Positions 11,275 to 28,168 of a DNA stretch of 32,000 bases are shown one piece after another. The DNA is from Candidatus Jordarchaeales archaeon (lineage in GTDB: Archaea; Asgardarchaeota; Jordiarchaeia; Jordiarchaeales; Freyrarchaeaceae). The DNA is taken from assembly GCA_038858525.1 (NCBI GenBank), contig JAWCFL010000021.1:731-32730 (forward strand), in the 5' to 3' direction. The position numbers were made by a program, and so were the translations under genes. Numbering within the stretch: position 1 is the first letter of the stretch; every line of letters begins with the position of its first letter. Under the pieces are notes generated by a model, which saw nothing but the letters and a program-made list of their open reading frames with translations, did not search any database and had not been told where the DNA came from.

Positions 11275-12408
11275 TTAAACAAATAAATGCTCTACGCCCA
11301 CAACTTTACCCGGGCTTTTCAAAATTTCCTTCAAAACTTCTTCTATTATACCTTGATCTATGACATTCCCTCCCTTTATGAGGACCCTATGAAAAGCTGT
11401 TTTGAGCAACTTCTCCTTTAAGTCTCTCCCGGAAAATCCCTCAGTCATCATAGCTATCCTGTTAAAATCGCACTCGACTCTTATAGGAATCTTTTTGGCA
11501 TACATTTCAAGAATTTGTCTCCGCTCCTCCACGCTAGGCAGAGTAAATTCTATCTCCTCTTCAAATCTGCTTCTGAGAGCAGAGTCGAGAAGCATCATAT
11601 TATTTGTGGCTCCAATACAAACAACTCCAGAGGTTAGCTCAAGTCCATCTATTTCCGCGAGAAGCGCATTAACAACTTCTGTAACATCCCCCCTCACACT
11701 TTGAAACCGTCTGTCTAACCCTATAGCGTCTATTTCGTCTAAGTAAATCACACTCGGAGCGGCATCCCTTGCTCTCCTAAAAAGCTTACCAATTTTACTG
11801 GCGGCATCACCTACATGTGTTCCTATGAGCTCAGGAGACTTAACAAAGAAAAACTCCGCGCCAGTTTCATTTGCTAATGCCTGAGCAGTCATGGTTTTTC
11901 CTGTTCCTGAAGGACCATAGAAAAGAACGGCTTTGGGCGCCCACTCTCCGAAGTTCTCTGGCTGTTCCAGATATCTCTTTATGATAAGACATTTCTCCTT
12001 AGCTCTCTTCTGCCCAACTACATCTGCAAGCGTAACTTTAGGTAACTTAATAGCGCGTCGCTCAGCCTTCTTAATAACTTTAAATATTGTCTTACCGGTA
12101 ATTTGGCCTTCGCTGGGTATCATGTCTGTTATTTTAAATGCGAAATCGGGGAAAAGAGACCTGTCAAAAAGCAAGTCCCCCTTTCTAATGTAAAGTCCAT
12201 CCCACTGCTCTCTAGCATAGGCCTGGAAAACCTCCGGATTATCCACGACTAAAGTAGTCTCTTTTTCCTCCCCTACTTCTCTTAGAGGGTATCCTAATGG
12301 TTCCAATTCCACTATAGCTGCTTGCTTCCACCTTTCCTCGCTCCTCCTACGTCTCCCCGGACTTGTCTTCTTATATAATTTCTCTTCCTCTATTTCCTCT
12401 TTAACCAT
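11275..12408 (-). CDS. AAA+ ATPase (COG1223-type)
   Basis: LFYGPSGTGKT Walker A, IYLDEIDA Walker B, LDSALRSRFEEEIEF; N-terminal F..YAREQW.G. Confidence 0.85.
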   Translation of the reverse strand: MVKEEIEEEKLYKKTSPGRRRRSEERWKQAAIVELEPLGYPLREVGEEKETTLVVDNPEVFQAYAREQWDGLYIRKGDLLFDRSLFPDFAFKITDMIPSEGQITGKTIFKVIKKAERRAIKLPKVTLADVVGQKRAKEKCLIIKRYLEQPENFGEWAPKAVLFYGPSGTGKTMTAQALANETGAEFFFVKSPELIGTHVGDAASKIGKLFRRARDAAPSVIYLDEIDAIGLDRRFQSVRGDVTEVVNALLAEIDGLELTSGVVCIGATNNMMLLDSALRSRFEEEIEFTLPSVEERRQILEMYAKKIPIRVECDFNRIAMMTEGFSGRDLKEKLLKTAFHRVLIKGGNVIDQGIIEEVLKEILKSPGKVVGVEHLFV

Positions 12409-12411
12409 TCT

Positions 12412-13630
12412 TTACCCCTCTCGTTCCATTATCTCGCTGAACTCTAACACTTTAAGCTCAGGTGGTTTTTTAACTATGTTTTCTTGGCGTACCCCTACAA
12501 TCCATTTTACTCCCTTCTCCTGCGAGATATCAATGAGTCTTTGTGTCACTATACCATCTAAAATTACGGCTCCAACTTTCTCATTGAAGCTTCGAAGGAA
12601 ATCTGCGAGCTCTGATACGTCGACTTCAGCCATCATGTTAAGTGCCTCCCCCAGGATCCTCGCCTTACCCGAGCCGAAAACTGCATTTGAATGATCAGTT
12701 ATCTCCTGCGGAACCTTAGTTGCTTTTTTAATTATCTGCACTTTCTTTTCTTCACGCTTCTTCCAGCTCTCGTGTTCAGCGATTTGCTCGACGGGAACCT
12801 TATTGCTCAAGGCCTTCATAATCTCCTTAAATGTAAGCTCTTCAACTTCGCGGCCGGGAGGCGCCCTCGCCACATAGTCTATTTCTGCAATTTGCAGCAA
12901 CTCCTTTAAGATTAAGTCACCACCTCTATCACCATCTAAGAAGGCTGTAACGGTCTTTCTCTTGCTAAGTTCAACGATAGTTCTAGGAACACTTGTTCCC
13001 TCCACCGCTATAACGTTCTTAAAACCATACTTTAGCATGTTCAAGACGTCAGCTCTACCCTCAACTACGATGATCTCATCCGCTGAATCTATTTCTGGCC
13101 CGGCGGGTAACCCCTCCTTTCCATACTTACAGATTTCCTCGACTCTTGCCGCTTCAATGACTTTATTAATTATTTGTTCAGTTTCAGGGGAAACCTCCTC
13201 AGACCATCTTCTGAGAATTTCAATAGCTCGTTCGACGATCCTCTTACGCTTACTTTCTCTTACATCCTCTATGGACTCAAAGGTTACTTTAGCACTGCAT
13301 GGACCAATTCTATCAATGGTTTCAAGTGCCGCCGCAAGAATAGCTGTCTCAACCTTATCAAGACTCGAAGGGATAAATATCTCCCCTACAGCTTTTCCTC
13401 CATGCGTCTCAATCTCTGCCTTTATTCGCCCTATCCTACCCGTACGTTGGAGCTCCCTTAAGTCCATCTCGTCGCCGAGAAGCCCCTCCAATTTGCCTAC
13501 GTGAGCCCTCAGCTCTACGTAATTGGCCGAAAATCGCACCTATAACATCAGGCTTCTCGACGACACCATTTACCTCTATTTTAGCTTTTATAATATATTT
13601 TATCGTGCCAACATCATTTCGGTTAGCCAT
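12412..13630 (-). CDS. dnaG: Archaeal DnaG (exosome-associated toprim protein), intron-split: complement(join(12412..13491,13523..13630)), 395 aa
   Basis: ATG at 13630 follows GGAGGTGA. Exon 1 reads KYIIKAKIEVNGVVEKPDVIGAIFGQ and exon 2 reads LEGLLGDEMDLRELQRTGRIGRI...VVEGRAD...LDGDRGG. Confidence 0.9.
13492..13522 (-). other. 31-nt relaxed BHB intron in dnaG mRNA
   Basis: Minus strand GGCC-AAT-[TACGT A GAGC TGAGG GCTC ACGTA]-GGCA-AAT. Cuts after AA in both bulges give CAA|TTG GAG, in frame. Confidence 0.82.
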
Positions 13631-13724
13631 ATGAACATCACCTCCAAATTCATCCGCATTGAAGTTAAATGGTAACTGGGTATTGCAAGTTAATGTGCAC
13701 ACTCCTTATTTACTTCCAAGGTTT

Positions 13725-25114: not shown

Positions 25115-25936
25115 TCAGCTCCCTCTATTTTTTAGTAATGGCATGAAATACTTTTCACGTATTTCTTTTCCTTTTTCGATCGCTATTTCTAATGCTTCAT
25201 TAATATCTTTCTCACTTAAGACCCCATCCTCGCTTTTCTGAACAGCAACCACCCTGCCTTCTTTATCTGTTACTATAGTGAGCCGGCATTCCATTGCTCT
25301 TTCTTCATCTAACATTGGATCGAGGAGGATGTGTTCTCCAATCTTGCTGAACGTAAGTGAGACCGGCAAATCTCTTATTGGTAAGAGTTCCTTATCGTCT
25401 AAGCGCTTTACTTCGCCGTTTTTCACTTCCACTTTAGGTATTCTTGTTGAGAGGAGAGCTGCAACTGCCGCATACGATGCGGCGTCAAAAAGATTTCCGT
25501 TATCGTCAAGAATGTAAAGGTCTATAAAGAGAATCCAAACTTTTTCTCCCGGGATTATGCAAAGTTTTTCCATATCTACCATTTCAGTTTCTCTTATACC
25601 TCTATCAACTACCCGGGCTAGCTCTATAGCATCTTCTTGTGGAGGGCCTGCTTCAAATAATGGAGACGCCAAAGGAATAAGCTCTGCGTTACAAGTGATA
25701 ACACCTTTATTCGGCTCATCCGGAAACGGAGCACCTATCTCTGCTTTGACTCCCGCAATGACCTTTGTTTCGCCTAAGGATACTTTAGCGGACCCCTCCG
25801 CTTTCTTAATGAGCTCCGTCTCTATAGTTATAGGCCTCATTTCTCTCAGTGTTCTTCCATCTGCTCTTCGTCCCTTGTTTGCCAAGGAAATAATGAATCT
25901 TCTCTCAATTTCCGAAAGGACGTCATGCATTCTCAT
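25115..25936 (-). CDS. rrp42: Exosome subunit Rrp42
   Basis: [36 protein letters not shown]. Confidence 0.96.
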
Positions 25937-26699
25937 CTCCTCCTTCTTCCTCTTCTTCTTCAGACTCTTTTCTTACTGCCATGTATCTTTCTATCAGTGC
26001 TTGCCTTTGAAGTTTATATATCTCCATGCATCCGTCTATTGCCATTTTGTACGCCTCAATAAATTCTTCTTTAGTCATACGCCCATCCATCTGTAGAAGT
26101 GTAATAAACCGTTTTCTAGGCATAACTGCTACCGGCATATCCGCTTCTCCCAGTTTGTCTTCAACGTCGTTAGGATCTAAAACTAGTTGTCCATTGACTT
26201 TACCTACGGCGCAGGCAGTAACAAGGTCCCGCATAGGTACACCTGCATCTGCAAGCGCTAGGGACGCCGCTGTTATGCTTGCGCACCTTGTACCTCCATC
26301 AGCCTGAAGTACTTGAATATAAACATCTATAGTTGACCTTGGAAAGTTCTTGAGGAATATTGCAGGCGCTAGAGCACCTTTGATCACTTTTGATAACTCC
26401 AGTTCTCTTCTTGAAGGCGCTGGGTTTTTTCTTTCCTCCACCGAAAAAGTAGCCATCCTGTAAACGCATTGCAGAATTGCTGTATCTGGTCTAGCTAAGT
26501 GTTTTGGATGCAACTCCCTTGGCCCGTAAACGGCCACAAGAATTTTGTTGTTTCCCTGCTCTATATACGCTGATCCATCAGCTCTCGAAAGTACGCCTAC
26601 CTCAAGTTTTATCGGTCTAAGCTCACGAGCGCCTCTACCATCCACTCTAATGCCGTTTTTTAAAAGTTCTTCTCGAGAATATTTACTACCTGAATTCAT
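25923..26699 (-). CDS. rrp41: Exosome subunit Rrp41
   Basis: [36 protein letters not shown]. Confidence 0.97.
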
Positions 26700-26718: not shown

Positions 26719-27405
26719 TCAAGTTTTTTGGGAAATTAATTCTCGTATTCTATCAGTAAGTCCCGTCGTGTGCGCTTCTTTTTCAATCTGCCTTATTGCT
26801 TTAACAACCAGCTCCTCACTTTCTGGGCTACTACCAGACACCCAAATTAACCCATTCTGCCCTATTACGATTTGGCATTCTGTCTTCTTCTTGATCATAT
26901 TTATCATTGACCCTCTCCGTCCGATAAGCCTCGGTATCTTCGTAGGTGCCATTCTCACTAGTCTTCCCCCCTCAAGCTTTCTAAGATTTTTTTCTTTCAT
27001 AGTAAGTACTGGAGGTTGTGTTCTATCAAATGCCAAAATCTTTGCAACTATTAAGTCTCCAATATCATATATTCGTCGCAAATCCGTTTTAACGGGGTCA
27101 ACTGGTTTTCCTGAGACATTCATAGGGCTAAGGGTAGCTAGATAGGGAGCAAGTATGTCAACATCCCAAGAAGTTAACTTGACATTAACTATTTTACCTA
27201 TAACAGTATCGCCCGGTTTGGGCATGTAAACGCCTTCGAGAGGGACGACAACCACACTGTCCTCTCTAATTTCTGCCAGTCCAATTACTGTTGCCAGAAT
27301 TTTGTCTCCTTCTCTAAATGTTCCTTCACCGGACTTGAACTTATTTCCTTCAGCCAATATTTCGCCCGGAAGCACAATCTGTCTTTTTTTAACGTGAACA
27401 ACCAA
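26719..27405 (-). CDS. rrp4: Exosome subunit Rrp4
   Basis: [39 protein letters not shown] start after GGAGG. Confidence 0.95.
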
Positions 27406-27448
27406 CGTCGTTTCCTCCTTTTTCCTAAAAAATATTTTCAATAGGTTG

Positions 27449-28168
27449 CTAGAGAAATTTGATTTCTGCTTTGCCCTTGGTTGCCATGTTGACCGCATTT
27501 ATTAATTGTCCTTTTAGCCCTCCTGGTATTTCGATCAGAGCTATCCAAGAACCGTCGGCTTGCCACTCCCCCTTAACTATGTTCCCTAATCTTTCTAGGA
27601 CGCTATATCCTTTCCCTGCATGTTCTGGTGGGAATTTAACGGCTACTCTGATCGTCTCCATTTTTATAGGGATCACTTTCTGTATTTGTTTGAGAACGTC
27701 TTTTACCTGTTCTTCTGCGCTTCTCCAAATATCTATTTGGACCTTTGCCTCCTCCATTGCGTTTTCGATTCGTGTGGGTGGATGGGGGAGCCCTGTCTGA
27801 GGGTTTACACATGTCCTAGCTAAGATCGCTATTATCTTCTTCTTTTTTTGTTCCAAGAATTCGCGGCGTTGCTCTTGGGTTAGTTGCAGCTCACCTTTTT
27901 TTAATATGACCTTTGCGACTTCGAAGACGTCTGTTGTACCAAAGACTCTTTCTATGTCCTCTTCTGTTGCTTTTTCCCCTCTACGTGCGTTTTCATATAT
28001 TACGAAGGTTTGAATTATATCTGTGGGATCCACATTTTTTCCCGTCTTATACTCCCAAGCTTTCCTAACATCCACTAATATTTCAAATGTTTTCCCCTCT
28101 TTCTCGTATCTGGCGATCGATGTATTTTCTCCGAATTCTACTCTTTTTTCTCCTCTAATCTGTGACAT
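27449..28168 (-). CDS. SBDS/Sdo1 ribosome maturation factor
   Basis: G..FEILV, FGTTD, GELQLT.EQR, PHPPTRIENAMEEA. Confidence 0.95.
   Translation of the reverse strand: MSQIRGEKRVEFGENTSIARYEKEGKTFEILVDVRKAWEYKTGKNVDPTDIIQTFVIYENARRGEKATEEDIERVFGTTDVFEVAKVILKKGELQLTQEQRREFLEQKKKKIIAILARTCVNPQTGLPHPPTRIENAMEEAKVQIDIWRSAEEQVKDVLKQIQKVIPIKMETIRVAVKFPPEHAGKGYSVLERLGNIVKGEWQADGSWIALIEIPGGLKGQLINAVNMATKGKAEIKFL

Follow-up and report, generated by a model that had tools for sequence, protein, structure and literature searches.

When endonuclease-dependent splicing of archaeal mRNAs was reviewed in 2023, only those of cbf5 and HVO_1309 were known to be processed in this way, and more were expected (PMC10485636). 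The cbf5 pre-mRNA intron has been described from Crenarchaeota, in Aeropyrum, Sulfolobales and Desulfurococcales (Watanabe 2002; Yoshinari 2006; Yokobori 2009, PMC2738675; reviewed in PMC10485636), and is restricted to some members of that group (PMC2738675). HVO_1309 of Haloferax volcanii, whose host carries an alpha2-type enzyme, is given as the second archaeal mRNA spliced by the endonuclease EndA (PMC10485636; PMC7714728). Among tRNA genes, non-canonical archaeal introns of the helix-bulge-helix (HBh') and bulge-helix-loop (BHL) types are cut by (alpha-beta)2 EndA enzymes with a crenarchaeal specificity loop (PMC3241643; PMC5829648). Here we describe a 31-nucleotide (nt) insert in dnaG of a Candidatus Jordarchaeales archaeon, at positions 13522-13492 on the minus strand of a 32,000-nt stretch of contig JAWCFL010000021.1 (GCA_038858525.1; the whole stretch analysed is referred to as the window). 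Its features make it very likely that the insert is an archaeal endonuclease-type, or bulge-helix-bulge (BHB), intron in the dnaG coding sequence that is spliced by EndA and the ligase RtcB, and the dnaG mRNA very probably requires this splicing.

The searchable literature reports a BHB-type intron inside a coding sequence for one other archaeal gene only, cbf5. Literature searches on dnaG with intron or splicing endonuclease found no description of the dnaG element, and a preprint on Asgard tRNA introns (10.64898/2026.10.13.758758) does not use the terms mRNA, dnaG or cbf5. An intron of this kind had been proposed in a preliminary description of the window made from the letters alone, and the proposal is now supported by the type of EndA in the host, a survey of relatives, covariation, the presence of a single dnaG and independent assemblies.

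A 31-nt insert interrupts the most conserved motif of the DnaG N-terminal domain

Since intact archaeal DnaG proteins read GAIFGQTEGLLG without a break (GQLEG also occurs), the 31-nt insert breaks the most conserved motif of the N-terminal domain. Without splicing, the frame of exon 1 passes into unrelated sequence and meets a stop at 13436 after 64 residues. The frame of exon 2, which is offset from that of exon 1 by one base, reads LEGLLGDEMDLR... / LEGLLGDEMDLRELQ... from 13491 and matches the Pfam families Toprim, Toprim_4 and Toprim_2. Public gene callers represent the locus as two open reading frames (ORFs), of 375 and 64 amino acids (aa). When the 31 nt are taken out, the junction becomes GGC CAA/UUG GAG (the slash marks the join) and the 36 and 359 codons add up to a DnaG of 395 aa with the motif GAIFGQLEGLLG; the predicted peptide across the junction is ...GAIFGQLEGLLGDEMDLR. 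Only once the insert is removed do the N-terminal motif and the Toprim domain fall in a single polypeptide. Direct reading bore out the coordinates, lengths and structure that the preliminary description had given for the split of the GAIFGQ-xEGLLG motif, and translation reproduced both the 395-aa product that it derived from the Shine-Dalgarno-led ATG at 13630 and the 64-aa peptide of the unspliced message. The positions of all elements are collected in Table 1.

Table 1. Elements of the interrupted dnaG gene, its predicted fold and other genes of the window. A slash marks a predicted cut.
Feature	Positions in the window	Strand	Remarks
Shine-Dalgarno-like GGAGGTGA	13638..13645	-	7 nt upstream of the dnaG ATG; direct reading
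dnaG exon 1, 36 codons, MANRND...GAIFGQ	13523..13630	-	translation from the ATG at 13630
Putative 31-nt intron	13492..13522	-	removal restores GAIFGQ-LEGLLG
dnaG exon 2, 359 codons and stop, LEGLLG... with Toprim domain	12412..13491	-	translation; Pfam
Outer exon helix h, 5' strand UUUUC	13529..13533	-	pairs with GGAGG at 13485-13489
Central helix H, 5' strand GGCC (Gly codon and first Gln base)	13525..13528	-	pairs with 13494-13497
5' bulge AA/U	13522..13524	-	predicted cut between 13523 and 13522, after the second A; from geometry
Intron hairpin h', UACGU:ACGUA, bulged A, GAGC:GCUC, loop UGAGG	13498..13521	-	part of the minimum-free-energy fold
Central helix H, 3' strand GGCA	13494..13497	-	one G.A mismatch and three G-C/C-G pairs
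3' bulge AA/UU, 4 nt	13490..13493	-	predicted cut between 13492 and 13491, after the second A
Outer exon helix h, 3' strand GGAGG	13485..13489	-	pairs with UUUUC at 13529-13533
Toprim-only protein, 143 aa	13725..14156	-	directly upstream of dnaG
PRS2-type AAA+ ATPase (PRS2_N, AAA, PRS2 lid)	11275..12408	-	begins 4 nt past the dnaG stop
Rrp42	25115..25936		exosome gene, whole
Rrp41	25923..26699		exosome gene, whole
Rrp4	26719..27498		exosome gene, whole

The insert is fixed in its lineage and both exons are under purifying selection

The source genome comprises 2.09 Mb in 63 contigs and is 92.7% complete. A 63-nt stretch that includes the insert recurs without change in 10 other independent assemblies, drawn from NCBI metagenome-assembled genomes, Logan assemblies of SRA runs and a JGI metagenome. 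Sources from which DNA of the organism has been assembled include SRR27730034, SRR21619498, SRR27170999 and JGI 3300022544. In a collection of 5.8 billion proteins, all six protein clusters at 80% identity or above consist of N-terminally short calls of 348-375 aa, and the DNA behind five of the six carries an insert at the same codon boundary. Together with a genome of the same genus (G002) and one of the same family (G004), these five clusters give seven distinct family sequences, with inserts of 31, 32 or 34 nt. The 31-nt insert is real, fixed in the lineage and structured. A mobile element was also considered and rejected; blastn-short found no second copy of the insert in the genome.

Among family members, exon 1 has accumulated 10-19 synonymous and 1-3 non-synonymous differences, a ratio of non-synonymous to synonymous differences per site (pN/pS) of about 0.02-0.06 that is to be read with synonymous sites near saturation, and exon 2 shows a like pattern. 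Both dnaG exons are under strong purifying selection. The residue created at the junction is Leu in every family member, encoded by the synonymous codons TTG or TTA. The preliminary description had given Thr at this position in homologues and had listed the Leu as a caveat; the Leu is real, but since it is family-wide, and since GQLEG or GQLDG is found in the uninterrupted dnaG of families f17 and f31, it is natural variation.

The insert and its flanks form a relaxed bulge-helix-bulge motif

In the source genome a 4-bp central helix stands between bulges on opposite strands, in relaxed form. The predicted cuts lie two bases 3' of the central helix on either strand, which is the canonical geometry, and cuts at these symmetric positions in the bulges would remove exactly 31 nt and leave GAIFGQ-LEGLLG in frame. 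Tested at the level of sequence, the same cut rule holds in 15 further sequences, whose inserts measure 29-40 nt. Checked by hand, the five registers from -2 to +2 yield an identical product, and the central helix is paired only in register 0. In a 63-nt context the central helix, 5' bulge and hairpin make up the minimum-free-energy fold at 37, 60 and 75 C. When the insert was shuffled, 122 of 200,000 sequences (about 6 in 10,000) reached at least three of the four central pairs together with a 5-bp intron stem in the same register. Because so few shuffles match, and because the pairing covaries across relatives, the fold of the dnaG insert is more than chance. With a 5' bulge of 3 nt, a strong intron hairpin h' (5 + 4 bp) and a 3' bulge of 4 nt if the weak outer helix pairs, the element appears to fit the relaxed HBh' class rather than the strict hBHBh' motif. 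An Rfam scan of the window returned no matching family.

Pairing was scored over three helices in alignments of 12 and 16 sequences, with 500 shuffles and slid partners as controls. Paired cells made up 86.9% (12 sequences) and 87.9% (16 sequences) of the total, as compared to 72.3% and 76.6 +/- 1.6% in the respective shuffles, none of the 500 reaching the observed value, and 35-54% with slid partners, the range being 36-52% for the 16 sequences, although these controls overstate independence, the compared sequences being related and the structure having been derived from them. In the central helix, 91-96% of cells were paired over the 12-16 sequences. The clearest single covariation signal comes from the Gly wobble base and its partner, the second base of the intron 3' strand: their pair is C-G, U-A, A-U or G-C by lineage and so takes all four Watson-Crick types. 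In the sister genus GGUC:GACC replaces GGCC:GGCA, giving four Watson-Crick pairs. Within the family, the fifth pair of the hairpin is U-A, U.G or C-G, and the intron stems are unchanged while their loops vary freely. The outer helix is weak, with 83-85% of its cells paired, mostly as U.G and U-A; its pair adjoining the central helix is C-G, U-A or U.G and is unpaired in several rows.

Several observations weigh against an intron, beyond the relatedness of the sequences compared. Folded alone, an 81-nt context gives another structure (z -0.55), and single-sequence folding is not diagnostic for this insert. The motif is relaxed, one position of the central helix being a G.A mismatch, the bulge on the 3' side having 4 nt and the outer helix being mostly U.G, and a competing CCAAU/AUUGG pairing is possible in the source genome. 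The preliminary description, whose hairpin TACGT-A-GAGC-TGAGG-GCTC-ACGTA between GGCC-AAT and GGCA-AAT was confirmed by direct reading, had named the mismatch, the bulge and the competing pairing as caveats, and all three hold. The mismatch is a feature of the source genus, the sister genus having a fully Watson-Crick helix; for most of the 12 lineage sequences, the outer helix pairs best with a 4-nt bulge; and the competing pairing, CCAAUU/AAUUGG in the original wording, is not conserved, as the sister genus cannot form it. Finally, no ORF of the 395-aa spliced form was found in the 5.8-billion protein set or its 90% clusters, a point that we list here but do not weigh as evidence against splicing.

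The host encodes a broad-specificity endonuclease and other interrupted genes

The genome encodes two EndA paralogues, of 191 and 198 aa. The 191-aa protein most resembles the catalytic subunit of (alpha-beta)2 EndA from Aeropyrum pernix (3P1Z chain B, E 1.6e-48); it keeps the specificity loop of the crenarchaeal enzymes, the catalytic His and a Lys at each of the positions K44 and R46. The loop and K44 confer broad substrate specificity on EndA (PMC3241643). The 198-aa paralogue lacks the loop and has Ala in place of the catalytic His, features that fit a structural beta subunit. Whether the host enzyme is of a type that accepts relaxed motifs had been raised in the preliminary description, and by its loop and K44-equivalent Lys it is a broad-specificity, two-subunit EndA. 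An RtcB ligase is also present (601 bits), so that the host appears to encode both an endonuclease capable of acting on relaxed motifs and the ligase.

On contig C1, beyond the window (about 177136-177507, plus strand), GTL and (D)PKVTG of cbf5 are separated by an in-frame insert of 30 nt that contains a TGA. This insert forms a canonical hBHBh' motif in sequence, with the central helix CACU:GGUG, 3-nt bulges AGA and AAA, a 9-bp intron stem and the outer helix GGGA:UCCU, and the predicted cbf5 intron is a positive control inside the same genome. Two further genes of contig C1, also outside the window, are interrupted: rpl44e (178117-178368, plus strand) has an in-frame hairpin insert of about 30 nt that contains a TAG, and kae1 (186695-187515, minus strand) has a frame-breaking insert of 14 nt between GPGL and GPCLR.

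Only 11 tRNA genes were recognised in the genome by aragorn, and 8 of these contain introns; presumably, heavy interruption keeps most tRNA genes from being recognised. These counts fit the preprint on tRNA introns cited above, according to which Jordiarchaeia-type Asgard genomes have at least two intervening sequences per tRNA gene (10.64898/2026.10.13.758758).

Proposed splicing mechanism

From the arrangement of the motif and the enzymes encoded, we infer two cuts, ligation and a spliced dnaG mRNA. In the pre-mRNA, the GGCC at the end of exon 1 would pair with the GGCA at the 3' end of the intron to form the central helix. This helix would be flanked by a 3-nt AAU bulge leading into the 9-bp intron hairpin and, on the opposite strand, by a 4-nt AAUU bulge leading into a weak exon-exon helix. 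The two-subunit EndA would then cut each strand two bases 3' of the central helix, and RtcB would ligate the exons to GGC CAA/UUG GAG, from which the ribosome could make the 395-aa DnaG with its motif restored; an unspliced mRNA would give the 64-aa peptide only.

Alternative readings of the insert

The insert might instead stay in the RNA, with the ribosome shifting frame inside it or hopping over it and the hairpin acting as stimulator. Phage T4 gene 60 is translated by bypassing a short untranslated gap with a hairpin inside the coding sequence. In the source genome both frames are open across the insert, such that a full-length protein longer by about 10 residues could arise from a +1 shift; the hairpin is conserved, and in two relatives (G004 and G037) the take-off codon CAA recurs just ahead of the landing site. 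Frameshifting fails, however, because the 31- and 32-nt inserts found in 92%-identical proteins would need opposite shifts (the family has 34-nt inserts as well), and none of the three frames stays open through the insert of G037. Bypassing is countered by codons that are not conserved as a matched pair, CAA at take-off being set against AAA at landing in the source genome and against UAA in most Lokiarchaeal-type sequences. Among relatives with inserts of 29-40 nt, both offsets occur, and neither a constant shift direction nor matched take-off and landing codons was found. The residues that the insert would encode differ in 4 of 12 codons between genera, versus 1 of 36 in exon 1, and neither a frameshift nor a bypass gives any part to the covarying pair that the Gly wobble base makes with the 3' end of the insert. 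Recoding of either kind is therefore extremely unlikely. We consider it very unlikely that the gene is split into a short N-terminal peptide and a 359-375-aa body whose translation begins at an internal GTG or TTG, the two associating non-covalently and the hairpin serving in regulation or coupling. Public gene callers do annotate exactly these two ORFs, and the purifying selection acts on both parts, but the break falls inside the most conserved motif of the N-terminal domain, directly after the Q. The internal GTG simply belongs to the Gly-Ala codons and has no ribosome-binding site ahead of it, the N-terminal peptide with its unspliced tail is not conserved in length (38, 44, 53 or 64 aa), and a split gene gives no reason for the BHB geometry or the covariation.

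Frame-breaking inserts in metagenome-assembled genomes are often errors, and the locus could on that ground be taken for a frameshifting assembly error or for a decaying pseudogene. For an error, the insert would have to have arisen identically in all 10 independent assemblies, which exclude the misassembly that the preliminary description had named as a possible refutation, and neither the compensatory changes in the seven family sequences nor the inserts at the same site in other families would be expected. Decay is at odds with the selection on both exons. The preliminary description had also called for a search for a second, intact dnaG, and none was found in the 92.7%-complete genome; its argument from intact exosome partners holds as well, with Rrp4, Rrp41 and Rrp42 all whole in the window. 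A broken gene or artefact has next to no probability in our estimate and is already close to refuted.

Distribution of dnaG inserts across Asgard families

The survey of relatives suggested in the preliminary description revealed inserts exactly after the Gln codon in the source family (f1) and in three other Asgard families, f4 (32 nt), f9 (31-40 nt) and f27 (29 nt), with compensatory changes; they share the architecture and are otherwise unrelated in intron sequence. Distribution was tallied by hand in a sample of 400 genomes of the phylum, with a dnaG match in two pieces as a proxy for an insert, and the proxy was verified by reading the DNA of 16 genomes, of which 12 had the insert at this site, while f12 and f25 supplied 2 each. 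A two-piece dnaG was seen in 3/3 genomes of f1 in which dnaG was found, and in 2/2 of f4 and 1/1 of f27, both at the same site. In the Lokiarchaeal-type family f9, about 48 of 127 genomes were positive, mixed within genera, the f9 sequences examined having been picked for their inserts. Set beside these Lokiarchaeal-type inserts, that of the source genome has a different intron sequence, a G.A mismatch within its central helix and a junction residue of Leu instead of Thr. None was found among the 6 genomes of f2, a family of the same order as f1 that includes a closed genome of 3.6 Mb. All 18 genomes of f12 gave two pieces, with inserts of 28-29 nt that lie 8 nt downstream.

Another dnaG insert occurs in f25 (L046, L047; G144, G143); it lies within the codon for the Lys of VEKPD, upstream of the GAIFGQ codons by about 30 nt. 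With the site of f12 (L024, L026) as the third, the dnaG N-terminal region has inserts at three or more distinct positions across Asgard families.

In a quick DnaG tree of 42 rows, f1 and f2 were sisters with an approximate likelihood-ratio support (SH-aLRT) of 93; the source family is sister to Freyarchaeum, and the sister family lacks the insert. On this tree, whose deep branches are weak, the same-site inserts belong to three clades and no fewer than three changes are required to account for them; taking the well-supported branches alone, a single ancient origin may be compatible with the data. The f1 and f4 introns (L002, L016) share ACGUGGA...CUCACG in their inner hairpins, and the two families are not close on the DnaG tree. 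The shared stretch is very short and could reflect common descent, transfer or chance.

As to the identity of the source organism, its genome encodes an ESCRT-II EAP30 protein that passes the Pfam cut-off, as no control archaeon does, and the nearest full-length DnaG relatives carry the NCBI names Freyarchaeota or Jordarchaeum. One member of f1 is labelled 'Thermoproteota archaeon' at NCBI.

Genes flanking dnaG

The Toprim-only protein encoded directly upstream of dnaG (Table 1) has counterparts of 124-143 aa called in nearly all fetched loci of f1. Downstream, the PRS2-type AAA+ ATPase is a conserved neighbour of dnaG in all loci of that family.

Implications

An intron fixed in an essential, conserved gene would mean that mRNA splicing by EndA and RtcB is more than a peculiarity of cbf5; it would extend over several Asgard families and to a genome in which tRNA genes, too, are heavily interrupted. 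It would also mean that DnaG is mis-annotated in every assembly, where public gene calls give two ORFs without a name. A conserved protein motif can, on this evidence, supply the exon half of a splicing motif, and this may explain why inserts occur at the same codon boundary in distant lineages. We suggest only tentatively, and with rather more doubt than confidence, that dnaG is one of many coding sequences of the lineage that need enzymatic splicing, with cbf5, rpl44e and kae1 also carrying short structured inserts. If true, gene expression in the prokaryotes most closely related to eukaryotes would normally include a layer of routine endonuclease-dependent mRNA splicing, with the same sites used again in different Asgard families, and splicing of dnaG could set the level of an exosome cofactor.

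Comparison with known systems

As in T4 gene 60, a short gap with a hairpin lies within the coding sequence, but dnaG lacks matched take-off and landing codons (CAA versus AAA), and the gap lengths and the covarying helix fit an RNA-cleavage motif. HVO_1309 is similar in that the tRNA splicing endonuclease acts there, too, on an archaeal mRNA that contains a BHB motif. The non-canonical tRNA introns share the arrangement of a 4-bp helix between bulges on opposite strands, with each cut placed two bases 3' of that helix, and also the type of enzyme and its tolerance of relaxed motifs; the substrate in dnaG, unlike theirs, would be an mRNA. The cbf5 intron of Crenarchaeota is also close in kind. 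The splicing of cbf5 has been demonstrated experimentally, whereas we infer that of dnaG from sequence, and the two differ in gene, DnaG being an exosome and primase partner, and in phylum, the present host being an Asgard archaeon. In both, a short intron with a relaxed BHB lies in the coding sequence of a host with two-subunit EndA, its removal would be needed for a full-length protein, and its patchy occurrence among relatives implies gain and loss.
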